DNA from: an uncultured Acidobacteriota bacterium
Lineage (GTDB): Bacteria; Acidobacteriota; UBA6911
Reading direction: 5' to 3'
DNA length: 64,000 bases
NCBI GenBank assembly: GCA_963843575.1
Contig: CAWJKZ010000015.1
Span: forward strand, 160,001-224,000
Shown here in pieces: positions 50,013 to 64,000 of the stretch. Numbering within the stretch: position 1 is the first letter of the stretch; each line of letters starts with the position of its first letter. A program made the position numbers and the translations under genes. Below the pieces are notes generated by a model. It was given only the letters and a program-made list of their open reading frames with translations, ran no database searches and was not told where the DNA came from.

Positions 50013-50014
50013 TA

Positions 50015-50450
50015 GTGGGCCGCGTCGGCCCGACGCGGCACGGGAAGCGAGGGCACGGCACCGACCAGACCCCAGCCACAGGCCACCTCGCCGGAGAAGT
50101 CCCCCAGAGCGCCGGGACCCCGTTCCACGACTCTGCCACGACGCCGTCGCCGCAGAGGGAGTTTTCGTCCCCCGAGGCAGGGCCCGGATCGGGATCCGCG
50201 GCGGTGCCACGATCAGGATCGCGGCCGCGACGGCCGTGACTTGCGCAATGCGCCGCCGGTGGGCCAGCAGACGTTCCGGAAGCGCGCGGCGTCTTCCGCC
50301 GTGCGAACCAGCACGCGGCCCCAAAGGCCGCCGAGATCCGCGGGTATCAGCGCGACCGCACCTGCCAGAAGATTGGCGAACAGGGCATCCGGCAAGGAAT
50401 ATCCCGGCATTCCGGCAGCTCCGGGGCCGCGTCGGGCCGGCGCGGCCCAC
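50015..50450. repeat. 436-bp segment bounded by 25-bp inverted REP-like arms (family C)
   Basis: GTGGGCCGCGTCGGCCCGACGCGGC at 50015 and its reverse complement (1 mismatch) at 50426-50450; similar single arms at 24116 and 51982. Confidence 0.65.
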
Positions 50451-50462
50451 CCGATCAAGCGC

Positions 50463-51941: not shown

Positions 51942-52298
51942 CCGGGGCCCCCTGACGAAATGCTTTGGATTCTACCACCAAGTGGGCCGCGGCGGCTCGA
52001 CGCGGCCGTTTCTGTCGCAAGAATCGCGGCCGGGCCGCAGGGCGCAAACTGCCCGGGACCCCAACTGCGGGTGGGCTTCAGCCGGCCCCCGATGCGCGAA
52101 GGGACTCGCGCGTGACCCGGACAAGGCAAGATGCGCGAAACTTTGCAGCCTTTGGGCTCGTCCTGGAGTAACATCAGCTCGTCCGGACCCACTGCAGTTT
52201 CGAGATCATTCGCGGAAGTGGACTACTCGGATCAGAAATCCTGGCCTGAGCATGATGTCAATGCTGCCTAATTCACCTACTAACCAAGGAAAGTCACT

Positions 52299-53777
52299 AT
52301 GCAGGACAAAACCATCAAGAAGTCGCTACAGCGTCAGCTGACCCGACGCGAATTCGGCGGCGCCCTGGCCGCTGCCGGCGCGATCACCCACGCGCCGGCG
52401 TTTCTGAGGGGGCAGAACCTCAACAGCAAACTCAATATCGCGATGATTGCCTGCGGCGGTCGCGCGCTCGACAACATGAACGGCGACGGTGGAACCCGCC
52501 GTGGGCCCGGTGGCGCGGAGGCTGCTACCCCGCCCGGGCCGCCCAAGGGAATCCCGGCCGAGAACATCACGGTCCTCTGCGACGTCAACCAGGACGCCGT
52601 GGACGCCGCGGCCCTGAAATATCCGAATGCGAAAAAGTACAACGATTTCCGCAAGGTTTTCGACAGCCCGAACGACTTCGACGCCGTCATAATCAGCACG
52701 TGCGAGCACACCCATACCGTGGCAACGTACCTGGCATTGACGCACGGCAAGCACGTCTACTGCGAAAAGCCCCTCACTCACGACATCTGGGAAGCCAGGT
52801 TCATTCGTGAGACCGCCGCGAAATATCCGAAGCTCGCCACGCAGACGGGCAACGGCGGGCACGCATCGCCGAGCCGCCGGACGATGAAAGAAATAATCAT
52901 GTCCGGCGCCATCGGGCCGGTGCGCGAAGTGCACATCTGGGCGGGTCGCGCCTGGGGGCTGCAGAACGCCGAATCGGCCAAGAAGTACGACATGCCCCAC
53001 GGCTTCTACAACGGCATCCAGATAACCGAACGATTCAAGGAAGAGATGCCGGTGCCGCCGAACGTCCATTGGGACCTCTGGATCGGACCTGCGCCCATGC
53101 GGCCTTTCCACGCGACCTACCTGCCCGGACCGCGCTGGTACCGGTGGTGGGACTTCGGCAACGGCACCATGAGCGACCTCGGCGGGCACGACAACGACGT
53201 TGCCTTCCAGGTGCTGGACCTCACCCAGCCCCTGACGGTCGAGGCCGTGTCCCCGATCGGCAAGGCGCACCCGGAACTGGCGCCGGCGTCGCTGACCGTG
53301 ACCTACGAGTTCCCGGCCCGCGGCTCGGCCCCGCCGGTGAAGCTGGTCTGGTACCAGGGTGAAGGCCGGCCGCCTCAGTTCGACGCAAGCAAGATGAGTG
53401 AGCGCGCCCAGCTGTTCATCGGAGACAAGGGCATGCTTTACAGCGGTAGCCGCACCACCGGGCCCCAGTTGCTGCCCGAAGAGAACTTCAAGGGCTACCA
53501 GATGCCGCCGGAGACACTCCCCCGTTCGCCGGGTCACTACATCGAGTGGATCCAGGCGTGCAAGGGCCAGGGGCCTGCGGCTGGTTCTCATTTCGGGTAT
53601 TCCAGCTGGGTCACTCAGTCGAATCACCTCGGCAACGTGGCCTACCGGACCGGGAAGAAGCTCGAGTGGGATTTCAAAAACCTGCGTTGCCCCAACGCAC
53701 CGGAAGCCAGCCAATTCATCCGGCGTCCATACCGGAAGGAATGGGAAGGCATCCTGAAGGTACCGGCGGGAGCGTGA
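52299..53777 (+). CDS. Tat-exported Gfo/Idh/MocA oxidoreductase
   Basis: TRREF; HVYCEKPL; WDLWIGPAP; WWDFGNG. Confidence 0.88.
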   Translation: MQDKTIKKSLQRQLTRREFGGALAAAGAITHAPAFLRGQNLNSKLNIAMIACGGRALDNMNGDGGTRRGPGGAEAATPPGPPKGIPAENITVLCDVNQDAVDAAALKYPNAKKYNDFRKVFDSPNDFDAVIISTCEHTHTVATYLALTHGKHVYCEKPLTHDIWEARFIRETAAKYPKLATQTGNGGHASPSRRTMKEIIMSGAIGPVREVHIWAGRAWGLQNAESAKKYDMPHGFYNGIQITERFKEEMPVPPNVHWDLWIGPAPMRPFHATYLPGPRWYRWWDFGNGTMSDLGGHDNDVAFQVLDLTQPLTVEAVSPIGKAHPELAPASLTVTYEFPARGSAPPVKLVWYQGEGRPPQFDASKMSERAQLFIGDKGMLYSGSRTTGPQLLPEENFKGYQMPPETLPRSPGHYIEWIQACKGQGPAAGSHFGYSSWVTQSNHLGNVAYRTGKKLEWDFKNLRCPNAPEASQFIRRPYRKEWEGILKVPAGA

Positions 53778-54266
53778 AGCTCGCCGCTTGAGAAGTTCCA
53801 GGAGCCGGAGGTGGAAGGTGAGTACGTGCTCGCCTTCCGCCTCCGACCTCACGCTGGACGACTCAGCCGGGAAGGCGCGTCGGCACTACGCTCGCCGCCG
53901 ATCGATGCCCTCGATCAGCCTTTTCCTCCGCCCGACAGACGCGCATCGGCGAGCATCCTCTGCGAACGCTTGTGGTCTCGCAGATCGCCCCCCCGCCCGG
54001 AGAACCGATTCACGGCGTCCGCACCACAATCGATGGCTGCGTACGTCGGCGTTTTTCCGCGTCCAGAGATACGTTAGCGTAGTTTCGACCGGCACTGATA
54101 AGTCCGCGTGGCACTCACCCAGGCCTGGCTTACCTTCCGGTTTGTGCTCCGCGACTTCCCTCTGTGCTCCCGAATGCTCTCGACGTCAGACGCATAAGCC
54201 CTCCTGCGCGTCGATCGGCTTTTCAGAGCACGTCGGAACAAGATTGGATTCTGCATTACATTTAAC

Positions 54267-54295
54267 TTGCATACCGTGTGAGATGGTTCAATAAT
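54267..54295 (+). promoter_or_regulatory. Putative sigma70-type promoter of the radical SAM operon
   Basis: TTGCAT-N17-AATAAT in an AT-rich tract about 70 bp upstream of the first gene. Confidence 0.4.
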
Positions 54296-54362
54296 CGGCG
54301 CAGATTCGACCTCACAGAAGCAAGCTACGCCATGTGATTGAACAACAGCCTCGGTTGCGAGA

Positions 54363-55304
54363 ATGGTCGAGCGGCGGCGGGTTCTCGGACGGACAGGGTT
54401 ATCGGTTCTCGATGTCGGCTTTGGCGCCTGGGCCATTGGAGGGGATAGGTCCGGCTGGGGCTATGGCCCTACCGACGATCGAACATCTTTGAGGGCTGCC
54501 GAAGCAGCACTCGATCAGGGATGCAATTTTTTTGATACTGCCGACTGGTACGGGCACGGACACAGCGAGGTTTTGCTGGGGAAGGCGCTCAATTCCAGAC
54601 GCTCCGACGCGGTCATTGCCACCAAGGGGGGACTTGACTTCTACCACGGATCAGTGGGCGCAAATTTCCACCCCGCATACCTTCGCTTTGCACTCCACCA
54701 GAGCCTTCGACGCCTGCAGACCGACCATGTTGATGTTTATCAGCTTCATAATCCGCCGCCTGAGATAATCCACAGTTCGACGGTCGTCGACGAACTGAAA
54801 CGTTTGCAGAGCCAAGGCAAAATCCGCTGGCTCGGGATCTCGGCTGCTACAGTCCAAGACGGACTATCTGCCATCGACGCCCTTTGGCCGGACACCATTC
54901 AGATTGCGTATAACATGTTGGCTCCCCAGGCCGCAGCGACGCTTTTCCCCTTGGCCGATGCTCGCGGGGTTGGAGTGATCGCCAGGGAGCCACTGGCCAA
55001 CGGCTTTCTATCGGGGAAATACGGAGTGAACGCGTCTTTCCCGCCGAGCGACATCCGCAGCCATTGGCCTCCCGAGGTCCTCTGGGATGTCGTGAATCGG
55101 GTGCAGATGCTTGCGCCCTATTGCCGGCCGGGAGAAACGATGGCTCAACTGGCCATCCGTTTTGCGCTCGAACCACGTGCTGTGTCCGTGGTGGTCTGTG
55201 GCTGCAAGACTCCTGAGCATGTTGCAGAAAACTTTCGTCAAACCTCAGTCCATACTCAAGCCACTATGAAATCTACGCTGATGAACCGGGAGGTACCGTT
55301 ATGA
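54363..55304 (+). CDS. Aldo/keto reductase
   Basis: LGRTGLSV, FFDTADWYGHGHSE, ATK, SLRRLQTDHVDVYQLH and PLANGFLSGK motifs; stop overlaps the next start (ATGA). Confidence 0.9.
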   Translation: MVERRRVLGRTGLSVLDVGFGAWAIGGDRSGWGYGPTDDRTSLRAAEAALDQGCNFFDTADWYGHGHSEVLLGKALNSRRSDAVIATKGGLDFYHGSVGANFHPAYLRFALHQSLRRLQTDHVDVYQLHNPPPEIIHSSTVVDELKRLQSQGKIRWLGISAATVQDGLSAIDALWPDTIQIAYNMLAPQAAATLFPLADARGVGVIAREPLANGFLSGKYGVNASFPPSDIRSHWPPEVLWDVVNRVQMLAPYCRPGETMAQLAIRFALEPRAVSVVVCGCKTPEHVAENFRQTSVHTQATMKSTLMNREVPL

Positions 55305-55738
55305 ACGAAACTACGGCCCAACAATCGGCTGGAACATGGGGAAGCCCTGGGGCGTCGCCACAAATGGCGAGCCCGTGCAACATTGCCTCCCTCGCGCCGT
55401 TTCCCCCAATGCTGCAGGAGGCGGTCATGCAAACGGTCCTGGAGGCCAAGTGCGAAAGGGCCACTGATATCTGGTACGACGACGAGGCCAACAAGTCCCT
55501 CGTTGTCATGCGTCTCGGCGTCCAATGGCAGTTGAACGAGACGGCGAGGGCGCTCTGGCTCCGTCTCGGGAAGCGCGTGGGAGAAATCGTCGATGAATTA
55601 AGTAAGGAATACCCCGGCACGGATTCTCAGCAGATCAAATATCTCACCGTTGAGTTCGTTCTGAACGCGACCTCGCACGGGATTGTTGATCTTGTCTCGG
55701 AGCCGCCTGGAGAAAAGGCCAAGAAGAAGCAGTCTTAG
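55301..55738 (+). CDS. Stand-alone PqqD-family RiPP recognition element (RRE)
   Basis: Three beta-strand-like segments, then LNETARALW..L...VGEIVDELSKEY...VEFV......GIV, matching the PqqD winged-helix pattern; GGAGG RBS. Confidence 0.78.
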   Translation: MNETTAQQSAGTWGSPGASPQMASPCNIASLAPFPPMLQEAVMQTVLEAKCERATDIWYDDEANKSLVVMRLGVQWQLNETARALWLRLGKRVGEIVDELSKEYPGTDSQQIKYLTVEFVLNATSHGIVDLVSEPPGEKAKKKQS

Positions 55739-55842
55739 GCGCAACTCGGTTCGTGAACTGTCCGGATCCCCCCCCGCCCCCCCCATGAAGGAACCGTTTC
55801 ATCCCGTGGTTCTCTTCACGTCCGTGGCTATCAGGAATCAAC

Positions 55843-57330
55843 ATGCAACGACACACGATCGACCAGTCCACGTGTTTTGTCCCGTGGCCAACGAACGGGC
55901 GAACAGCCGGGAATGGCGCGATCAGAATCCGGTTGTTTCAACGCGTGGTTGCTCCGTGGACTCAGCCCACCGCCGTCTGGGAGTTCGGACCGCTCACCGG
56001 CTCCGTGGAGGGATTGGATATCTCCTTATGGCGATTCGACCTCCGTTCGATGCGTCTGCGCAGCAGTCAAGGCACGTGCCTGGCTCATACGTTTAGCGAG
56101 GCGAAAAATCTCGATTTTTCGGAACGTATGGTGCTTGAAGTATCGTCATCGACGGTCGGGGGGGCGGGATGGTCTCAATTCGAGGTGGATCTGTTTGTGC
56201 CGCCGGACGAGCTTGATGGGATGAAACGCCGGCTCCGGCTCAGCCGGGTCCCCCCGATCGAATGGTTTTTTGTTGAGCTGACCAACCGATGCAATTTCCG
56301 GTGTGCCTGGTGTCCCAGCGTAAAGATGGCGCGGGGACGCGGCGCCATGCCGCTGGCTCGAGCCAAGGTCTTAATGGAGGAGATCGCCGCCTATCGACGG
56401 CGCCATCCTCTGTTCTCCCTATACGCACAGATCCAGAATCCGGTGTTCCTGCACGTCATGGGCGAGCCTCTCCTGCACCCCGATTTTTTTGAAATCGTCC
56501 GACACGGCCAGGATCTCGGACTGAACTTCTGCCTGGTCACCAATGCGAGCCTCATCAAAGGGGAGATGGTTCGCCGGCTGCTGGAAAGCAACTTGAATTC
56601 GATCGTCCTGAGCCTCAACGCTCCGGACGAGGCCTCCTTCTCTCAAGCGCGTGCCCCCCTTTCGTACGGCCGTCTGGTTGCACAGGTTCAGGAGCTTGTG
56701 CGGGAGCGGTATCGGCGCGGCAGCACGCTTCCGCGCCTGGAGCTTCAACTCATCAATTCCAAACGGGTCCGCTGGTCGGCCTTCCCCCTGGTGGACGAAC
56801 CTGAGCAGGTGGCGCGGCAACTCGTGTTCTGGTCGGATTTCGTGCAGTCGCTGGAGAAAGCGAGCGGTGTCATCTCCTGTGGGCTCGAACCCGCCGAGGC
56901 AGCGCGCTGGCAGACCGTCCTGGAGCGCGAGACCAACGATCGGGGCATCTACTTCGAACTGGGACTGAACCTGTCGCTGACTTTCAAGCTGGCCTGCAAC
57001 TTCGGCAACGAGCTGTTGCCGGACCACCTGAAGGTGCTTGAGACCTCCAGCGGGGTCTGCCACTTCAGGAACGCCTATCGGACGTTTTGCGTGTTCTGGG
57101 ACGGCTCTTGTACTTTTTGTTCGCTTGATTACGACAACGAAGTCAATCTGGGCAATGTCTTTGAACAAGGCATCGATGCGATCTGGACAGGTGAGAGTCT
57201 CACCCGAATCCGCGGTCTGGCCGAACACGGCGTTCTGGCCGAACCGCTGTGTCGCCGTTGCATGGGCACCCTGGTGCCGAGCCGAGTCGCTCGAGAGCCA
57301 TCCGTCCCGAAGGGAGACATCCATGGCTGA
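55843..57330 (+). CDS. Radical SAM enzyme with a Twitch/SPASM-type C-terminus and a ~135-aa N-terminal extension
   Basis: ELTNRCNFRCAWC (CX3CX2C); MGEPLLHP; C-terminal C...WDGSCTFC..D....LGN...CRRC. Confidence 0.9.
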   Translation: MQRHTIDQSTCFVPWPTNGRTAGNGAIRIRLFQRVVAPWTQPTAVWEFGPLTGSVEGLDISLWRFDLRSMRLRSSQGTCLAHTFSEAKNLDFSERMVLEVSSSTVGGAGWSQFEVDLFVPPDELDGMKRRLRLSRVPPIEWFFVELTNRCNFRCAWCPSVKMARGRGAMPLARAKVLMEEIAAYRRRHPLFSLYAQIQNPVFLHVMGEPLLHPDFFEIVRHGQDLGLNFCLVTNASLIKGEMVRRLLESNLNSIVLSLNAPDEASFSQARAPLSYGRLVAQVQELVRERYRRGSTLPRLELQLINSKRVRWSAFPLVDEPEQVARQLVFWSDFVQSLEKASGVISCGLEPAEAARWQTVLERETNDRGIYFELGLNLSLTFKLACNFGNELLPDHLKVLETSSGVCHFRNAYRTFCVFWDGSCTFCSLDYDNEVNLGNVFEQGIDAIWTGESLTRIRGLAEHGVLAEPLCRRCMGTLVPSRVAREPSVPKGDIHG

Positions 57331-58606
57331 AGTGCTGCTGATCAATCCACCGATGTGGTCCCCAAAAGCCCACAGCTCTTTCACGGGGCTGTGCCCGCCC
57401 TTGGGTCTCGGGTATCTCGCCGCCTGCCTCCAACGGGAGGGCATCGGCGTCGATATTCTGGATTTGGACGTCAGTCCGGATCCTGATGCGGAACTGCGAC
57501 AGGCGTTTGCCCATCGGGCGCCTCGCTTGGTGGGCATTACCAGCCTTACGCAGAACCACTTCCTCGCCTTGCATGTGGCGCGGGCCGTAAAGGCCATGAA
57601 CAGCAAGACCCTGGTCGCCATCGGCGGTCCCCACGTTTCCTACCGTTGGGACGAGGCATTGGCACAACCCGCCATCGACGTCGTCGTGCTCTTTGAGGGT
57701 GAACGCACAATTGTCGAACTCTACCGGCAGGCGCAGCAGGAACAACCGGATTGGAGCGGCATTGCCGGCATCGCCTACCGGAATGGGGGGCATAATGAGC
57801 TGACTTCTCCCAGACCCCGCGAGCAAGAACTGGACCGCATCCCGCATCCGGCGCGCCATCTGCTGCCGATGGGCCGTTACGGAAGGCCCGGCACGATCAT
57901 GACCAGCCGCGGCTGTCCGATGAAGTGCATTTTCTGCATCTCCAGTACCTACGAGGGATGCTACCGCCCGCGCAGCGCGGATGACGTCGTCGAAGAACTC
58001 ACAGTGCTCCGGCACACCTGGGGCCTGCGGGAAGTCTACCTGTTGGACAATGTCTTCACAGTCGACAGTGCCCGGGTACAGAGCATCTGTGCGCAGATTA
58101 TCGAACGGAAACTCGGCATCCGGTTTCACTGTGTGTCACGGGCGGATTACATGACCGAGGAGCTCGCTCGCTGCCTCAAGGCCGCCGGATGCGAACGCAT
58201 CGAGATCGGTGTGGAATCGGGGTCGCAGGAAATCATCGAGGCTTTGAAAAAGCACATTACCCTGGAGCAGGTGTTTCGAGCCGCAGACCTCGTCCTGGGC
58301 GCGGGCATGCAGCCCATGTTCACCTTTCAGATCGGTTCTCCCTTCGAGACCGCCGCCTCACTGGAAAAGACCCATCAGCTCGCGGCTGACTTGCGCTCCA
58401 AAGGGGCCATCACCTTCTTCTCAGTCATGACCCCTTATCCGGGAACGCCCTTCGCTGAACGTGCGGAGGAACTCGGGGTCGTGATCCGAGCGAAGGACTG
58501 GCGGGAGTTCCGGACATCCAACCCTATATGCGACATGCGCTATCTGAATTGCAACAGTTTGCGTCAGGCTTTATACAGGGAATTTCCCCTGCTGCAAGAC
58601 CGCTAG
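57323..58606 (+). CDS. Cobalamin-dependent (class B) radical SAM enzyme, probable methyltransferase
   Basis: VLLINPP, PPLGLGYLAA and GGPH (B12-binding domain); TSRGCPMKCIFC; GVESGS; PYPGT. Start overlaps the upstream gene end; GGAG RBS. Confidence 0.9.
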   Translation: MAEVLLINPPMWSPKAHSSFTGLCPPLGLGYLAACLQREGIGVDILDLDVSPDPDAELRQAFAHRAPRLVGITSLTQNHFLALHVARAVKAMNSKTLVAIGGPHVSYRWDEALAQPAIDVVVLFEGERTIVELYRQAQQEQPDWSGIAGIAYRNGGHNELTSPRPREQELDRIPHPARHLLPMGRYGRPGTIMTSRGCPMKCIFCISSTYEGCYRPRSADDVVEELTVLRHTWGLREVYLLDNVFTVDSARVQSICAQIIERKLGIRFHCVSRADYMTEELARCLKAAGCERIEIGVESGSQEIIEALKKHITLEQVFRAADLVLGAGMQPMFTFQIGSPFETAASLEKTHQLAADLRSKGAITFFSVMTPYPGTPFAERAEELGVVIRAKDWREFRTSNPICDMRYLNCNSLRQALYREFPLLQDR

Positions 58607-59704
58607 ATGCGGTCAATACCGCGAGGCACACCCACCGTGACCGGGCCAAGACAGGGCGAAGCCCCGGGATCTCCAGACCACCTTTACCTCGAGATCACGG
58701 ATCGCTGTAATCTCGGGTGCAAGCACTGCTATCTGGGGGCGCACCCCGGCGGCAGGCACATGATGCAGGGCCGGGCTGTGCGCGCAGCGCTGTCGGACTT
58801 TGCCGCCATGGGCGGTCGCACCGTTTCGTTCAGCGGTGGTGAACCGCTGTTGCATCCCGAGTGGAAATCGTTGCTGGCACACGCGGCTCGGCTCGGCCTC
58901 GGGTGCACGTTGATCACGAACGGCACCATGCTCGACAAGGAGGCGATTGACGCCTCGGTGCGTCTGGGCGCGAGGATTGCGCTAAGTATCGACGGGAGTC
59001 AGGCCGCGACCCACGACGCGATTCGGGGCCGCGGGAACTTCGCGCGGGTCCAGACGGCTCTGAAGAATCTCGGGGCGATTGGAGCACAAGGGCAGGTGAT
59101 TGTCTGCTTCACACCCATGAGACGGAATCTGAACGATTTAATTCCTTTGGCCAAAGCGCTCCACCGGGACGGATTTCATCAGCTCTACGTGTCCCTCCTG
59201 GAAGATCGTGGCCGGAAACGAGCCCACGATCGGGAGCTGTCGCTGGACACTGGGGAGCGGGTTCGTTTGTTGACCCAGTTGGTCCTCTTGCTCACCGACC
59301 CGAGCCTGGCAATGCACGTGGATACAGGCCATCTGACGTATTTTTTTGAGCGCCTCCTGGGAAAACCGGATGGGCTCGGCGACCCGATTGAGGGAACCTT
59401 GCGTGTGGCCCCTACGGGCCAAGTCTACCTGAGCGCGTATGTGGATGATGAGGCATTCCGTTTGGGAAGTCTGCAGGAAGCAAACCTGCGGGAGTGCTTC
59501 CTGTCGGAGCGCGTCCGTGTCCTTTATGCGCAAGCCAGAGAACGGCAGGACGGTCTGCCGGCATGTCGCGATTGCCCGCACTGGATCGTGTGTGGTGGTG
59601 GCAGCCCCGCTCGCGCGTATGCGAACAACGGCTGTTTGTCCACCCCGGACGAATTCTGCGAGGCTAAACGTATCTTTCTGGAGCGATGGTACCGTGCAGT
59701 GTGA
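58607..59704 (+). CDS. Radical SAM / SPASM peptide maturase-like enzyme
   Basis: EITDRCNLGCKHC; SGGEPLLH; SIDG...HDAIRG.GNF; C-terminal CRDCPHWIVC...C; directly abuts the upstream stop (TAGATG). Confidence 0.9.
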   Translation: MRSIPRGTPTVTGPRQGEAPGSPDHLYLEITDRCNLGCKHCYLGAHPGGRHMMQGRAVRAALSDFAAMGGRTVSFSGGEPLLHPEWKSLLAHAARLGLGCTLITNGTMLDKEAIDASVRLGARIALSIDGSQAATHDAIRGRGNFARVQTALKNLGAIGAQGQVIVCFTPMRRNLNDLIPLAKALHRDGFHQLYVSLLEDRGRKRAHDRELSLDTGERVRLLTQLVLLLTDPSLAMHVDTGHLTYFFERLLGKPDGLGDPIEGTLRVAPTGQVYLSAYVDDEAFRLGSLQEANLRECFLSERVRVLYAQARERQDGLPACRDCPHWIVCGGGSPARAYANNGCLSTPDEFCEAKRIFLERWYRAV

Positions 59705-59869
59705 AAGCTGCAGGTACCGCGCCCGGTAAGTTGCTTTAAAAAGTTCAGGGATGCCCATGCGTGCTGTGCACCCCGTGTCTGAGGCAGCCTCCCGGAGGGA
59801 GCATTTATTTCCAATACAAGTCGGAGGCGGCCGGTATCTCCAAACCATAACCGAGGAGAGGAGTTTGTC

Positions 59870-60859
59870 ATGACCGACGAACAACGGATATTCGTACCAC
59901 CGAGTGCCACGGGTTTGACCGCAATGAATCCGGCAGGCGGTGTCCGCATGGGCTACGCCATGGGCGGGGCTCAGAGGATGGCACCCATGATGGGTGGCGT
60001 CCGCATGGGCTACCCCATGGGCGGAACTCAAATGATGTCCCCTATGATGGGTGGTGTGCGCATGGGCTACCCGGCCGTCATGGGATACGTAATGGACGTG
60101 TCGGGCGGTGCGGGCATGATGCCGCGCATGGGAGGAGTCCGCATGGGCTACCCGATGGGCGGTACTCAGATGATGTCCCCCATGATGGGAGGAGTCCGCA
60201 TGGGCTATCCCATGGGCGGTGCTCAGATGATGTCCCCCATGATGGGTGGTGTGCGTATGGGCTACCCATCCGTCATGGGATATGGCGCCGGTGCCGACGT
60301 GACAGGCGGCGCGCGCATGGGAGGAGTCCGCATGGGCTATCCCATGGGCGGTACTCAGATGATGTCCCCCACAATGGGGGGAGTCCGCATGGGCTATCCC
60401 ATGGGCGGTTCTCAAATGATGGCGCCCTCGATGGGTGGCGTGCGCATGGGATACCCTGCCGTCATGGGATATGGCGCCGGCGCGGACGTGACGGGCGGCG
60501 CGCGCATGGGAGGAGTCCGCATGGGCTACCCCACCATGGGCGGTACTCAGATGATGTCCCCCACCATGGGAGGAGTCCGCATGGGCTACCCCATGGGCGG
60601 TTCTCAAATGATGGCGCCCTCGATGGGTGGCGTGCGCATGGGATACCCTGCCGTCATGGGATATGGCGCCGACGTGAACGTGGCGGGCGGCGCGGGCATG
60701 GGAGGAGGCGGTTCTCAGATGATGTCACCCATGATGGGAGGAGTCCGCATGGGCTACCCCATGGGCGGTTCTCAGATGATGTCACCCATGATGGGAGGAG
60801 TCCGCATGGGCTACCCCATGGGCACGCAGCAAATGGGTAGTTTCCGAATGGGAATGTAG
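59870..60859 (+). CDS. Putative multi-core RiPP precursor / Met-Gly-rich repeat protein (14 x GGVRMGY)
   Basis: Strong GAGGAG RBS; 22-aa non-repetitive leader; repeats invariant in protein but varying at synonymous codon positions; lies downstream of an RRE and three radical SAM genes. Confidence 0.82.
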   Translation: MTDEQRIFVPPSATGLTAMNPAGGVRMGYAMGGAQRMAPMMGGVRMGYPMGGTQMMSPMMGGVRMGYPAVMGYVMDVSGGAGMMPRMGGVRMGYPMGGTQMMSPMMGGVRMGYPMGGAQMMSPMMGGVRMGYPSVMGYGAGADVTGGARMGGVRMGYPMGGTQMMSPTMGGVRMGYPMGGSQMMAPSMGGVRMGYPAVMGYGAGADVTGGARMGGVRMGYPTMGGTQMMSPTMGGVRMGYPMGGSQMMAPSMGGVRMGYPAVMGYGADVNVAGGAGMGGGGSQMMSPMMGGVRMGYPMGGSQMMSPMMGGVRMGYPMGTQQMGSFRMGM

Positions 60860-60865
60860 CAACCA

Positions 60866-60893
60866 CTCACCCTCTCCTTCGGGAGAGGGTGAG
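60866..60893 (+). terminator. Perfect 12-bp hairpin with a UUCG tetraloop after the precursor gene
   Basis: CTCACCCTCTCC-TTCG-GGAGAGGGTGAG starting 7 nt after the stop. No U-tract follows, so it may be a stabiliser rather than a terminator. Confidence 0.6.
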
Positions 60894-61029
60894 ATTCTCA
60901 CATGGCACATCGCAGTGTCGCACCATCGCGTTTCGTCGGCATGAAACCTCGAGGTAACTCCTCAGGCGTATCGAGTGTTGGGTTAGAGAACCAAGGTGCC
61001 TCACCCGGGAACAAGCGAGGCGCAATTCC

Positions 61030-61815
61030 ATGACGACCCTGTGCCTCCATTCAAAGCCTGAAATGGAGGCCTTTCTCCGCCACAATACCTACTTGCATCT
61101 TTATGAGATCGGTGACCTGGACGACTTCTTCTGGCCGCGGACCCTATGGTATGGCCTGAAGGACAGAGGCCAGATTACCCAACTCGTCTTACTTTACACT
61201 GGAGCATCTCCTCCCGCCTTGCTTGGTTTCACCGAGGGGCCCATAGAGGAAATGGCAGAGTTGCTGCGATCTATCATCCCTCTTCTCCCCAAACGTTTTC
61301 TTGCTCATCTCAGTCTGAATCTGGCGGCGGTATTTGCAGACGACTACCAAATCCAATCGCACGGCACGTTCCATAAGATGGCGCTGACCCGCCCCTCATG
61401 CCTGGAAGGAGTGGACACGTCTGCAGTCGACTCTATGACGCTGTCCGACATCGATGATCTACAAAGGCTCTACCGCGCAAGCTATCCGGGGAATTGGTTC
61501 GATCCGCGGATGGTCGGGACTGGCTACTTCTATGGCATACACCGCGATACCGAGCTTGTGAGCGTCGCCGGGGTGCATGTATACTCCGCACATTACAGAA
61601 TCGCCGCGTTAGGCAGCGTAACAACACACCCGAACTATTGCAAACAGGGCTTGGCAACTGCAGTTTGTGCCAAACTCACCAAGTCGTTGATGGGGAGTGT
61701 GGAACATATCGGGCTGAACGTGGAAGCCGGCAACGCGAGCGCCATACGTTTGTATGAGAAACTCGGATTTGAAGGTGTCGCTGCGTATGGAGAGTATGCC
61801 TTCGAGTGGAAGTGA
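61030..61815 (+). CDS. GNAT-family N-acetyltransferase (C-terminal FR47-like domain)
   Basis: LGSVTTHPNYCKQGLAT (acetyl-CoA motif A) and LNVEAGNASAIRLYEKLGF. Confidence 0.85.
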   Translation: MTTLCLHSKPEMEAFLRHNTYLHLYEIGDLDDFFWPRTLWYGLKDRGQITQLVLLYTGASPPALLGFTEGPIEEMAELLRSIIPLLPKRFLAHLSLNLAAVFADDYQIQSHGTFHKMALTRPSCLEGVDTSAVDSMTLSDIDDLQRLYRASYPGNWFDPRMVGTGYFYGIHRDTELVSVAGVHVYSAHYRIAALGSVTTHPNYCKQGLATAVCAKLTKSLMGSVEHIGLNVEAGNASAIRLYEKLGFEGVAAYGEYAFEWK

Positions 61816-62420
61816 ATGACCCGACGGCGGCAATTACGAAATCGATTCAGACCACGGCTGTGACCGTGGTCGGAGGGGAATCTTGGAAACACGGCCTGGC
61901 GGCGAGCCCGGAGCAGCGGCGAGCAGCTGGCGCAAGGACGGATTGAGCTGTTGCTCGCGACCCGAGCCACCACAAGTGCGGCGGTACGCATTTTCCTCGG
62001 GAATGGCGGTGCGCCGGATTTACGAACGGCTAACCGCGCCATGATCCTCGACTGGGCGAAGACAAACGGAGTCGAGCATGAGGAATTGAGCGCCAATTAA
62101 AACGGCAAAGAGCATTGGTCGTGCCTGATCGTGGAATCGATTATCGGATGTTTTCTAGCATCCTCAGATCGGTGCCTCCAGTATCAAGCTGCGAATACAG
62201 AAGGGTGCCTCAGGCGAGGCAGAAAGCCCGTACTGGGAATACCTCGGGAGGGGAGCGACAGTCTTCACCTTTCCGGTCGAGACACGGGCGTGCAGGCGGA
62301 GTTGTCACGAGAACTTAAGGCCGCGATCATCTCCTGCGGAGATGGAAGATCGGCATGCGCTCGCCGAACTGAAAGAGTCGCCGGGAGGTTCGGCTACCAT
62401 GATAGTGGTGCAGGGAAATC

Positions 62421-63254
62421 TCACTCCTGACGCCTCGAGGCAATAGCGTAGAGGGTTGCCTTCAGCTCAAAGGGGGTCAGATAGGGGTGCTTGGAGAGAA
62501 CCAGCGACACAATGCCTGAGATGTGCGGTGCGGCGAAGCTGGTGCCGGTAACCGTCTTATAACCGCCGCCCGCCCAGGGCGCACGAATATTGGTGCCGGG
62601 AGCGGCTAACTCGATTCGATTCCCGTAACGATAGGCGAAGGTGAACGAGTCGCCCCCCTGCAAGTTTCCGACCGAGATCAGAGACGAGAAGATGGATGGG
62701 AAACTCGGAGGGGGGACGTTGTTGGCCGCCGCCACGAGAATTGAGCGGCCGAAATAGGCAAGATCCGTCAGCTCATGCAACTGGGAGAAGTACTCCTCCC
62801 TCGTTGTGCCCAAGCTGAGGTTGACCACGTCCATTCTGTTCTCAATGGCCCAACGAAGGCCCAGGAGAAAAGCCTCACCGGTTCCGCCGCAGGACGGGCC
62901 GAGGACTTTGACGCTGAACAGTTCCACGTCAGGCGCGATGCCCTTGATGATGCCGGCACACGCCGTGCCGTGCCCAAAAGCATCGGTAAAACTGCAGGGA
63001 AGCAGTTGGGGCCCCGACGGAGTCATCCACACATCTACGCCCCCCTTCACGCTGCCCGTGATGTCCGGATGGGAGGCGTCGATGCCGCTGTCGACAACCG
63101 CCACTCTGATACCTCTTCCCGTGGAGTCTCCCCAGGCATTCTCAGGAGCCGCGAGTCGGGAAATGGGCCCATCGAGCCTCGAGTACACACTGCCCGAGTT
63201 CGCCGGCTGATGTCCCTGAAACCTCTGATTGCCTGTTGTGCCTCTGAGGGGCAT
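62421..63254 (-). CDS. Minimal cytoplasmic S8 (subtilisin-like) serine protease
   Basis: Catalytic triad motifs VVDSG, HGTAC and GTSFAAP; no signal peptide and only a short N-terminal segment. Confidence 0.9.
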   Translation of the reverse strand: MPLRGTTGNQRFQGHQPANSGSVYSRLDGPISRLAAPENAWGDSTGRGIRVAVVDSGIDASHPDITGSVKGGVDVWMTPSGPQLLPCSFTDAFGHGTACAGIIKGIAPDVELFSVKVLGPSCGGTGEAFLLGLRWAIENRMDVVNLSLGTTREEYFSQLHELTDLAYFGRSILVAAANNVPPPSFPSIFSSLISVGNLQGGDSFTFAYRYGNRIELAAPGTNIRAPWAGGGYKTVTGTSFAAPHISGIVSLVLSKHPYLTPFELKATLYAIASRRQE

Positions 63255-63266
63255 GGGTTGGGCTTT

Positions 63267-63998
63267 CTACCTTCTCAATGAGCCGCCGAGACTCAGGGGG
63301 CGGAACTCCAATCGCGCGTGAACCGCATTCAGGATGTCGAGGCACAGCTGCGCATCTTGCGGCCTTCGTGTGACAATGCTGACGATCCTGGTCGCAATCT
63401 CTAACGCCATCCTGTACTCGTGTGAGGCGCTAGCCCTTTCGAGACCTGAAGCCATCGCCGCCACCACCTCCCGTGAGCCGGGGACGATATCCGTTGCCCC
63501 CAACCTCTCCTTGGCCGCTGCCAGCAACGACTGCCCTAGCAAGAACATATGGCGCTTCTCCACAGCCGCTCCCACGATCGTGGCGAACTGTGTGAGAAGC
63601 TCCATATCCTGCTCGGAAAAACCCCCTCCACCGACTTTGTTCACAGTCTCCAGGACGCCTAACACGCTGGATCCGGAAACTATCGGCACAGCAAGGATGG
63701 AGTGGGTTGCAAACTGAATGGCCTCGGAAATGGACCGGTTCCACTGTGCGTTTTCCGCCAGATCTTGCACGTTCAGTGGCTGGCCGCTGGCCACCACAAA
63801 GCCAGCGATGCCCTGGCCAATCGCCACTTTGAAGTGTTTTAATTCATCCGCCTTCTCTCCATGAACGGCAGAGAAGACAAGTTGGGTCCCGGTTTCGTCG
63901 AGGAGGAGGATCGATCCGCCCTCCGCCTCGACGGAGACCGTGGCCACGCTGATAATGGTATCCAGAAGTTCCTCTGATTCCGGGGATGGCTTGAGCAT
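63267..63998 (-). CDS. GAF-domain protein (N-terminus may lie beyond the window)
   Basis: SILLLD, GQGIAGFV, SILAVPI, GVLETVNK...FSEQD (NKFDE-like GAF signature). Confidence 0.82.
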   Translation of the reverse strand: MLKPSPESEELLDTIISVATVSVEAEGGSILLLDETGTQLVFSAVHGEKADELKHFKVAIGQGIAGFVVASGQPLNVQDLAENAQWNRSISEAIQFATHSILAVPIVSGSSVLGVLETVNKVGGGGFSEQDMELLTQFATIVGAAVEKRHMFLLGQSLLAAAKERLGATDIVPGSREVVAAMASGLERASASHEYRMALEIATRIVSIVTRRPQDAQLCLDILNAVHARLEFRPLSLGGSLRR

Positions 63999-64000
63999 TC

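Follow-up and report, generated by a model that had tools for sequence, protein, structure and literature searches.

The 64,000-nucleotide stretch analysed here (the window; positions 160,001 to 224,000 of contig CAWJKZ010000015.1, from an uncultured Acidobacteriota bacterium, GCA_963843575.1) contains a 329-codon open reading frame (ORF) that probably encodes the substrate of a new multi-core pathway, in which a peptide that is ribosomally synthesized and then post-translationally modified (a RiPP) is matured by radical S-adenosylmethionine (rSAM) enzymes. If we include a variant in which the chain matures into one long product, a radical SAM RiPP of either kind is very likely. A multi-core precursor served by radical SAM enzymes had been proposed in the initial annotation of this DNA. 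The idea is supported by the synonymy of the core codons, an operon that also encodes a PqqD-type protein and rSAM enzymes, a precursor homologue (P0123) from another assembly, and an export and protease module in the same genomic island.

Precursor and operon

The precursor consists of a short leader and a long repeat array:

59870-60859, plus strand: precursor ORF, 329 codons, an open frame; sixth gene of the plus-strand set
59870-59935, plus strand: leader of 22 amino acids, contains FVPPSA and terminates in A-G-G; FVPPSA.G is common to P0123
59936-60859, plus strand: GGVRMGY(P) array of 14 units with Met-rich spacers and a 189-nt higher-order repeat, stop codon included

The exact sequence GGVRMGY occurs in all 14 units and is followed by Pro in 13 of them and by Ala after the first. 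Additional VMGY motifs were identified four times, one per third ("B") unit. Unit lengths are 19 amino acids (eight units), 20 (one unit), 21 (the last unit), 25-27 (three B units) and 37 (the fourth B unit, which includes a degenerate additional spacer). The (A-A-B)x4 + A-A layout previously given is a fair description of the array, given these lengths and the four VMGY-bearing B units. With Tandem Repeats Finder, the array resolves into 57-nt units within a longer period of 189 nt, which scores 1048 at 4.0 copies and 87% matches. The chain is rich in Met (75 residues, 23%) and Gly (87 residues, 26%), and has five Asp, one in the leader and one in each of the four B units. Lacking from its 329 residues are Cys, Trp, Lys and His. 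These unit and residue counts were reproduced by script, and all of those made by hand in the initial annotation (22-residue leader, 14 cores, 13 with Pro, about 75 Met, none of the four missing amino acids) agree with them. The ATG lies 8 nt downstream of GGAGAGGAG, a Shine-Dalgarno-like sequence. Pfam and NCBIfam scans of the precursor returned no match, and it has no signal peptide.

The operon runs in the order aldo-keto reductase, PqqD-type protein, rSAM/SPASM enzyme, B12-binding rSAM enzyme, second rSAM enzyme, precursor and GNAT. The upstream enzyme genes overlap or abut, and the precursor starts 165 nt past the second rSAM gene (rSAM 2). Besides the precursor, the genes are:

54363-55304, plus strand: aldo/keto reductase (Pfam Aldo_ket_red, E 7.4e-55); first gene of the island, its stop overlapping the start of the PqqD-type gene by 4 nt
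55301-55738, plus strand: PqqD-type protein, candidate RiPP recognition element (Pfam PqqD, 34.8 bits, cut-off 23.4, residues 68-128)
55843-57330, plus strand: rSAM 1, a radical SAM/SPASM protein (Pfam Radical_SAM 7.1e-14, SPASM 1.7e-10) with a CNFRCAWC cluster motif and a Cys-rich C-terminus
57323-58606, plus strand: B12-binding radical SAM enzyme (B12-rSAM; Pfam B12-binding 2.7e-25, Radical_SAM 1.8e-22), its start overlapping the rSAM 1 stop
58607-59704, plus strand: rSAM 2 (Pfam Radical_SAM 3.5e-23) with a reduced SPASM/twitch-like C-terminus, abutting the B12-rSAM stop
61030-61815, plus strand: GNAT acyltransferase with an N-terminal extension (Pfam Acetyltransf_1 1.2e-10)

A gene for a small protein that shares an operon with maturases and a PqqD-type recognition element is the generic signature of a radical SAM RiPP cluster, and it is the arrangement found here. 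The PqqD-type protein has no match in NCBIfam; its true start may be Met43, and alternative starts with Shine-Dalgarno-like sequences are present. The database form of rSAM 2 starts at 58637. Upstream of 53777, the genes have unrelated housekeeping or sugar-oxidoreductase functions.

Selection on the repeated peptide

Variation among the 14 copies of the 21-nt GGVRMGY core is confined to six sites, which coincide with the six degenerate third positions; the remaining 15 sites are invariant. The probability that six variable sites are arranged in this way by chance is 1 in 54,264. When the next residue is included, the eight-codon core occurs in nine DNA versions among the 14 copies. By the Nei-Gojobori method, the proportions of synonymous (pS) and nonsynonymous (pN) differences are 0.468 and 0.000 for the 14 cores, 0.331 and 0.063 (ratio 0.19) for the eight 19-residue A units, and 0.367 and 0.095 for the spacer alone, figures that are descriptive and carry no formal test, with pairs that are non-independent and gene conversion possible. 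Drift confined to silent sites among the core DNA repeats argues for selection acting on the peptide. The purifying selection claimed in the initial annotation is supported by the unit alignment and substitution-rate comparison, in which every difference among the core DNA copies is synonymous.

The copy number of 14 comes from a single assembly. The longest exact internal repeat of the precursor gene is 82 nt and the higher-order copies are 83-95% identical, the last two 95%; collapse or expansion of the repeat during assembly is possible only between these last two. From two soil DNA runs of the same study, 6% of the sequence words of the locus were recovered, along with three contigs of 151-214 nt over 58688-59640. 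No contig from these two runs covers the precursor repeat, and the sequencing-run search listed no RNA run that contains the locus.

A homologue with the same leader and core

A HMMER search of 1.84 billion representative sequences with the precursor gave 11 matches, of which six were inspected (P0122, P0123, P0126, P0127, P0128 and P0131); outside the inspected set are P0121, P0124, P0125, P0129 and P0130 (566-2339 amino acids). P0123 (MCU0286875.1) is the sole true precursor homologue among the inspected matches, and it alone of the six has a matching leader. The other five are unrelated low-complexity repeats. P0123 is an 86-residue protein encoded on a 9,020-bp contig of a metagenome-assembled genome (MAG) labelled Acidobacteria. 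It keeps the FVPPSA.G leader and has five G-A-VRMGYP units, and its start context is the same as that of the precursor. The Met-rich spacer is absent: the long spacers of P0123 align to the window spacer only at one Pro and the pre-core Gly, and its short units are nearly spacerless. Met-richness is a local feature of the window gene. The layout of leader and cores is conserved in this single homologue, and the module shared by the two family members is P-x-x-G-[G/A]-V-R-M-G-Y-P.

Further searches for precursor relatives were negative. Among proteins of 180-576 amino acids, none of the 8000 scored candidates is a relative at E <= 0.001, and a comparison of precursor residues 1-70 with shorter proteins gave five candidates and no relative. 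In viral contigs, the core DNA pattern matched 16 contigs once each, with no arrays, which is the level expected by chance. No VRMGY-type motif array was identified in any of the 161 foreign loci examined.

Two other repeat proteins were recorded in the course of these searches. P0128 (604 amino acids, E 5.7e-4) has a signal peptide, appears eukaryote-like and contains many N-[MT]-GYPAGG repeats that resemble MGYPMGG, probably a case of convergent low complexity. In a Marinilabiliaceae MAG (JABUTU010000076.1), a plus-strand ORF of 225 amino acids (L011:4329-5003) contains about 11 CGTSYDCSGGGG-type Cys-containing repeats; a distant rSAM/SPASM gene, with 25% identity to rSAM 2, follows ~290 nt downstream. 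This ORF is a candidate for another many-repeat rSAM substrate, and its repeats recall the Asp-Cys repeat peptides mentioned in the available text of PMC9062424. The core number of the window gene, earlier described as unusually high, is reasonably called exceptional at 14-fold, but with this ORF it is neither unique nor unparalleled.

Radical SAM enzymes

The NCBIfam cut-offs are reached by none of the seven window proteins scanned. The best NCBIfam score of rSAM 1 is 77 bits (cut-off 380), and its relatives in the PDB are weak only. B12-rSAM scores best with BchE (152 bits, cut-off 481), ApyD (149.9, cut-off 750) and the RiPP C-methyltransferase TIGR03975 (103.4, cut-off 281.85), and its best PDB match is AprD4 (4e-21). 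StsB and MftC are joint-best for rSAM 2, at 101.2 bits each (cut-offs 625 and 265); PDB relatives of the enzymes are remote, with PqqE among the matches. Against the models of cyclophane-forming enzymes, rSAM 2 scores 65.6 bits for YhhB (cut-off 445), 57.8 for AmcB (425), 66.2 for DynA (450) and 73 for WgkB (650).

Assignment to known families was considered for each enzyme. The cyclophane-maturase families YhhB, AmcB, DynA and WgkB do not include rSAM 2, all scores being below the cut-offs. The mycofactocin and PQQ maturases are likewise out of range (TIGR03962, 101.2 vs 265 for rSAM 2; TIGR02109, 31.8 vs 381.35 for rSAM 1), and the precursor Tyr is internal and followed by Pro, unlike the cognate mycofactocin and PQQ peptide motif. 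Sactipeptide or ranthipeptide maturases are not indicated by the scores (StsB, 101.2 vs 625; PapB, 56.5 vs 340) or by a precursor with no Cys in 329 residues, and the initial annotation was correct to exclude such thioethers on the latter ground. B12-rSAM does not qualify as a proteusin-type C-methyltransferase (TIGR03975, 103.4 vs 281.85). A repeating core with a conserved Val or Ile, as in the substrates of cyclopropyl synthases, is present (Val is invariant across the 14 units here and the five complete VRMGYP units of P0123); membership of that enzyme family was rejected, the GYW motif being missing from rSAM 1, B12-rSAM and rSAM 2. Epimerase families are not among the NCBIfam matches listed for rSAM 1 or rSAM 2.

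Relatives of rSAM 2 are few. From 8000 scored candidates out of 5.8 billion protein clusters, we identified 24 full-length relatives with 45-76% identity; a further seven have 33-41%. Metagenomes or MAGs are the source of every one, and no relative has a specific name. The CX2CX5C motif and one later Cys are invariant across the 31 aligned relatives. Orthologues of rSAM 2 were not found in 40 relative genomes (one non-orthologue at 27% identity only), in 400 genomes sampled from the phylum of the window, in 136 others of its class, or in 401 genomes sampled from the phylum of an Acidobacteriota MAG; these phylum and class searches covered 937 genomes in total, and within the phylum samples scoring extended to the five best candidates of each genome. 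The last sample had no genome in common with that from the window phylum, from which the two precursor family members would lie in different phyla. Profile scans of genome and metagenome contigs placed relatives of rSAM 2 in at least 301 of 600 and at least 528 of 595 stretches, matches to generic rSAM patterns. Among the matches listed, only L084 (59% identity, partial) is an orthologue. At L084:4046-5469, the orthologue lacks the N-terminal cluster motif and the contig ends there; it adjoins a GNAT gene on the opposite strand, and the window GNAT shares 29% identity over 224 amino acids (E 9e-26) with that protein. Either decay of a cluster or chimerism of the contig could explain L084.

Export system, protease and genomic island

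Downstream of the operon, and partly beyond the window, are genes for proteolysis, regulation and export:

62421-63254, minus strand: small subtilisin-like S8 peptidase, 277 amino acids (Pfam Peptidase_S8 1.1e-37), convergent with the operon
63267-64000, minus strand: C-terminal part of a 449-residue zf-HC2 (anti-sigma-type) and GAF protein (L165:1270-2616) that extends past the window
66710-75001 in window coordinates (L165:4710-13001), minus strand: NHLP-type bacteriocin export system and an OEP/TolC-like protein (NCBIfam)

The export permease/ATPase (TIGR03797, 918.9 bits, cut-off 709.4), the C39 peptidase/permease/ATPase (TIGR03796, 1057.8 bits, cut-off 853.3) and the HlyD-type adaptor (TIGR03794, 324.6 bits, cut-off 156.2) are encoded contiguously on the minus strand (L165:4710-11242), the gene set that defines an NHLP export system. 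Together with the OEP protein gene, they lie 3-13 kb past the precursor. This exporter is the only match to TIGR03796 above the cut-off genome-wide. Its C39 domain retains the Q...ECG...NHF...D motifs, whose Gln, Cys, His and Asp we take to be the catalytic residues. The minus-strand set that precedes the exporter encodes the zf-HC2/GAF protein, a protein resembling extracytoplasmic function (ECF) sigma factors and a cyclic nucleotide monophosphate (cNMP)-binding protein, the last similar to the "bacteriocin-type transport-associated" family at a score below the cut-off. The S8 peptidase also falls below the NCBIfam cut-offs, for mycosin (116.3, cut-off 278.75) and QhpE (85, cut-off 165).

Peptidase-containing ATP-binding cassette (ABC) transporters process substrates that terminate in GG, GA or GS, in which position -3 is often Ala and positions -4, -7 and -12 are hydrophobic, according to the accessible parts of PMC6363468. 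The leader here ends in A-G-G|V. All repeats read M-G-G|V, Met occupying both -4 and -7, and the corresponding sequence of P0123 is G-A|V. GNATs are common in NHLP and Nif11 clusters, as stated in the part of PMC8784127 available.

The operon and the export genes lie in a ~25-kb block (window 53760 to about 78720; C15:213760-238720) that is absent from G001, an 81% complete genome of the same genus. Synteny with G001 (82-85% nucleotide identity) extends up to 53759, the end of the GFO/IDH/MocA gene that precedes the reductase, and the region from 53760 to the window end and the export block have zero matches in that genome. At the far edge of the block, about 25 kb in, a tRNA-Arg(CCT) gene (C15:238725-238801) matches G001 again, and full synteny resumes from C15:241585, about 28 kb after the break. 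The GC content of the block is 59.6%, compared to 64.1% for the genome, a value that ranks among the lowest 3.6% for 25-kb windows; it differs little between the rSAM operon (59.5%) and the export block (59.3%). Based on their shared absence from G001 and like GC content, we infer that, in this genome, the genes for biosynthesis and those for export travel as a unit. The far end of the island encodes a Fic/DOC protein and SGL- and URO-D-like proteins. No integrase was seen in the island, nor were PqqB/C-type or MftD/E/F-type genes.

Short stretches of 27-80 nt (window ~50014-50055, 50416-50457, 51973-52009 and 54022-54110) have many scattered matches in G001 (77-100% identity) and resemble dispersed repetitive extragenic palindromic (REP)-like intergenic elements; one of them is located between genes at the left island boundary.

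Predicted pathway

We predict that the FVPPSA leader is recognized by the PqqD-type protein, which would hand the chain on to the enzymes, and that the two SPASM/twitch-type rSAM enzymes abstract hydrogen and modify every VRMGY unit. The likeliest modification would be a small cyclophane in which a C-C or C-O bond centred on Tyr reaches an Arg, Val or Met side chain, with epimerisation as the alternative. Precedents for a Tyr cross-link inside a motif of 3-5 residues are the Arg-Tyr link of RrrB and the twitch-domain enzyme WprB (PMC9389541, PMC11851443); another is the change made to the invariant Val by TvgB/TigE (PMC9062424, PMC10878394). B12-rSAM may add a methyl group or carry out another cobalamin-dependent step. 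The C39 peptidase-ABC transporter and/or the S8 protease would then cut after Gly-Gly (G-A in the homologue), at the leader end and before every core, and up to 14 near-identical short peptides per translated chain could be released and exported via the ABC/HlyD/OEP system.

A more specific form of this pathway is a polyprotein strategy, which we put forward tentatively as a possibility well short of an expectation. Here, 14 V-R-M-G-Y modules would each receive an undescribed cross-link from Tyr to an aliphatic residue (Arg, Val or Met), made by a new reduced-SPASM clade, along with a cobalamin-dependent modification, and each would be excised at its own Gly-Gly by the C39 peptidase to give 14 identical macrocycles. 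If true, this would represent new enzyme chemistry and an internal, repeated use of a double-glycine export signal.

Several observations weigh against a multi-core RiPP pathway of this kind. The leader, at 22 amino acids, is much shorter than the NHLP or Nif11 model and matches neither; in six frames of the genome, the two leader models (TIGR03793 and TIGR03798) had no match, and in the controls the NHLP model had none and the Nif11 model one, below its cut-off. The residues before each internal GG include Pro at -5 and Gly at -11 and -12, which makes them a poor fit to the helical segment recognized by C39 peptidases as set out in the accessible parts of PMC6363468. Given this poor fit, the S8 protease may cut internally, or there may be no internal cuts. 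An NHLP exporter also occurs in four of 40 relatives that lack an rSAM 2 orthologue. The exporter is on the strand opposite to the precursor, with regulators between them, and the link between the two is one of proximity and shared island membership alone. The L084 orthologue locus, which is N-terminally truncated and runs off the contig, has no precursor. The association of the enzymes with the precursor is seen in this one genome, where expression of the precursor, its modification and its product are predictions from sequence. Given that no enzyme reaches an NCBIfam cut-off, the proposed chemistry is guesswork, and the Arg-Tyr crosslink, Tyr cyclophane and C-methylation named in the initial annotation are likewise candidates only. 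Finally, a 329-residue chain with 23% Met is far larger than typical RiPP precursors.

Alternative explanations

The rSAM substrate may not be cut into units. In this case, only the 22-residue leader would be removed, leaving one long, repeatedly modified Gly/Met-rich polypeptide, either epimerised and C-methylated in the manner of proteusins or similar to TvgA. TvgA and TigB are modified on every repeat of one chain, according to the parts of PMC9062424 and PMC10878394 available. Such an outcome would fit the Pro- and Gly-containing segments before the internal GG, which look poor for C39 recognition, as well as the constraint on the spacers (pN 0.095 vs pS 0.367). The combination of a B12-rSAM, rSAM enzymes and NHLP-type export is the proteusin tool-kit. 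However, P0123 replaces or drops the spacer and keeps G-[G/A]-VRMGYP, as expected of an excised cassette, B12-rSAM is far from the cut-off of the RiPP C-methyltransferase family (103.4 vs 281.85), and the leader gave no match to the NHLP or Nif11 model. We therefore regard a single long product as unlikely, and retain the excised-core pathway as the preferred interpretation.

That the chain is a poly-precursor for small molecules derived from Tyr, for instance redox cofactors or signals like PQQ or mycofactocin, is improbable. Each VRMGY unit would receive a cross-link and be cut down to a few atoms, and the reductase and GNAT would act on what is excised. PQQ and mycofactocin synthesis both begin with a PqqD protein and an rSAM/SPASM enzyme, MftC is joint-best for rSAM 2, PqqE is among the PDB matches, and the V-x-x-x-Y spacing equals that of the Glu-x3-Tyr pair in PqqA. 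In addition, the aldo/keto reductase is translationally coupled to the PqqD gene. The scores, however, are far below the cut-offs (MftC, 101.2 vs 265; PqqE, 31.8 vs 381), the Tyr is followed by Pro rather than being C-terminal, and genes of the PqqB/C or MftD/E/F type were not seen in the island. The dedicated peptide exporter favours a secreted peptide.

The content of 23% Met and 26% Gly could also be that of an ordinary disordered protein (e.g., metal-binding or oxidant-scavenging) that is a chance neighbour of the rSAM genes, and Met-rich repeats do bind Cu(I) in other proteins. This is very unlikely for the window gene, as P0123 has no Met-rich spacer yet has the leader and VRMGYP, the gene is in a tight operon position after that for the PqqD-type protein, it is confined to a RiPP-like island, and its product has no signal peptide, no His or Cys and no Pfam or NCBIfam match.

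That the precursor is not a gene, or that the array is an assembly artefact, can practically be discounted: the assembly is metagenome-like (27 contigs, 88% complete), the repeat lacks coverage in the two soil runs and its last two higher-order copies are 95% identical, but mis-assembly or non-coding DNA cannot yield synonymous-only core variation, a homologue is independently present in a second assembly, no exact repeat exceeds 82 nt, and the antisense ORF that would compete with the precursor has no family match and mirrors the repeat.

Comparison with known systems

The closest analogues among repeat-motif rSAM substrates are the poly-cyclopropylglycine RiPPs of the TvgA/TvgB and TigB/TigE systems (PMC9062424; PMC10878394). 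As far as the available text of these papers goes, TvgA and TigB, like the window precursor, have a short motif repeated head-to-tail with an invariant Val or Ile beside Gly, and an rSAM/SPASM enzyme modifies every repeat. Two rSAM enzymes are encoded in the tig cluster as well, for which five identical products have been proposed. The 4-6 repeats of TvgA are those of synthetic substrates. In contrast, the GYW motif that is strictly conserved in the TvgB/TigE rSAM/SPASM enzymes (PMC10878394) is absent here, and the unit is longer, contains Tyr, Arg and Met, and is present in 14 copies, compared to up to five in TigB. A B12-rSAM, a PqqD protein and an NHLP exporter are additional features of the window cluster, unlike Tvg and Tig.

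In the cyclophane systems (WprA/B/C, RrrA/B with its Arg-Tyr link, and the triceptides), the link joins an aromatic residue and an sp3 carbon that lie in one motif of 3-5 residues, and these motifs can repeat and be modified independently (PMC11851443, PMC9389541, in the parts accessible). The same sources describe WprB as having a single-auxiliary-cluster (twitch) domain and requiring a separate small recognition protein; rSAM 2 and the PqqD protein may act in the same way, and R-M-G-Y offers an Arg-Tyr pair. However, the enzyme scores here are below the cut-offs and the motif is not Aro-X-X3; a cross-link is a candidate only.

Features shared with the NHLP/Nif11 RiPPs (prochlorosins, proteusins and selidamides; PMC6363468 and PMC8784127, available in part) are the full export set, the A-G-G leader end, and the GNAT and B12-rSAM. 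Unlike those RiPPs, the window system has a 22-residue leader for which neither leader model gave a match, GG sites inside the chain, and no lanthionine synthetase.

PQQ (PqqA/D/E) and mycofactocin (MftA/B/C) synthesis resembles the system described here in the use of a PqqD-type chaperone and an rSAM/SPASM enzyme on a Tyr-containing peptide. PQQ and mycofactocin precursors have one core per peptide, with the motifs Glu...Tyr or a C-terminal Val-Tyr. Here, by contrast, the enzyme scores are below the cut-offs and the downstream pathway genes were not seen in the island.

A literature search by motif strings and keywords, the scope of which was set short of supplementary tables and large compendia of rSAM RiPPs, returned no description of this family. 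The logic of the system (leader, recognition protein, rSAM enzymes and GG exporter) is familiar; the core motif and the enzyme clades appear, judging by their sequences, to be new. If our interpretation holds, this is an undescribed RiPP family, with a VRMGYP core that matches no curated precursor model, and the scores of the three rSAM enzymes below every curated cut-off make at least one new peptide modification likely. Its 14 cores, each with a Gly-Gly, would provide a system for following leader-guided enzyme action along many cores and for asking whether a peptidase-ABC exporter processes internal sites. The family is very rare (24 full-length enzyme relatives and one precursor relative were found), and its location in a variable island fits a horizontally traded specialised-metabolite cluster of soil bacteria.

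Other features near the precursor gene

An antisense ORF on the minus strand (59138-60607, 489 amino acids), rich in His, Ala and Gly, overlies the repeat. We rejected it as a gene, as it has no family match and is a mirror of the repeat; a gene caller could mis-annotate it. An Rfam scan of 53000-64000 (E <= 0.1) gave no match, promoter and terminator scans found sites no more numerous than in shuffled sequences, and the 146-nt intergenic region upstream of the precursor folds no better than its shuffles. One structured element was identified downstream:

60866-60893, plus strand: hairpin with a perfect 12-bp stem and a UUCG loop, 7 nt past the precursor stop, no U-tract

The terminator scan did not call this hairpin. 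Its folding energy is -25.7 kcal/mol (z -4.73), none of 200 shuffles folds as well, and it is possibly a transcript-stabilising or attenuating stem.

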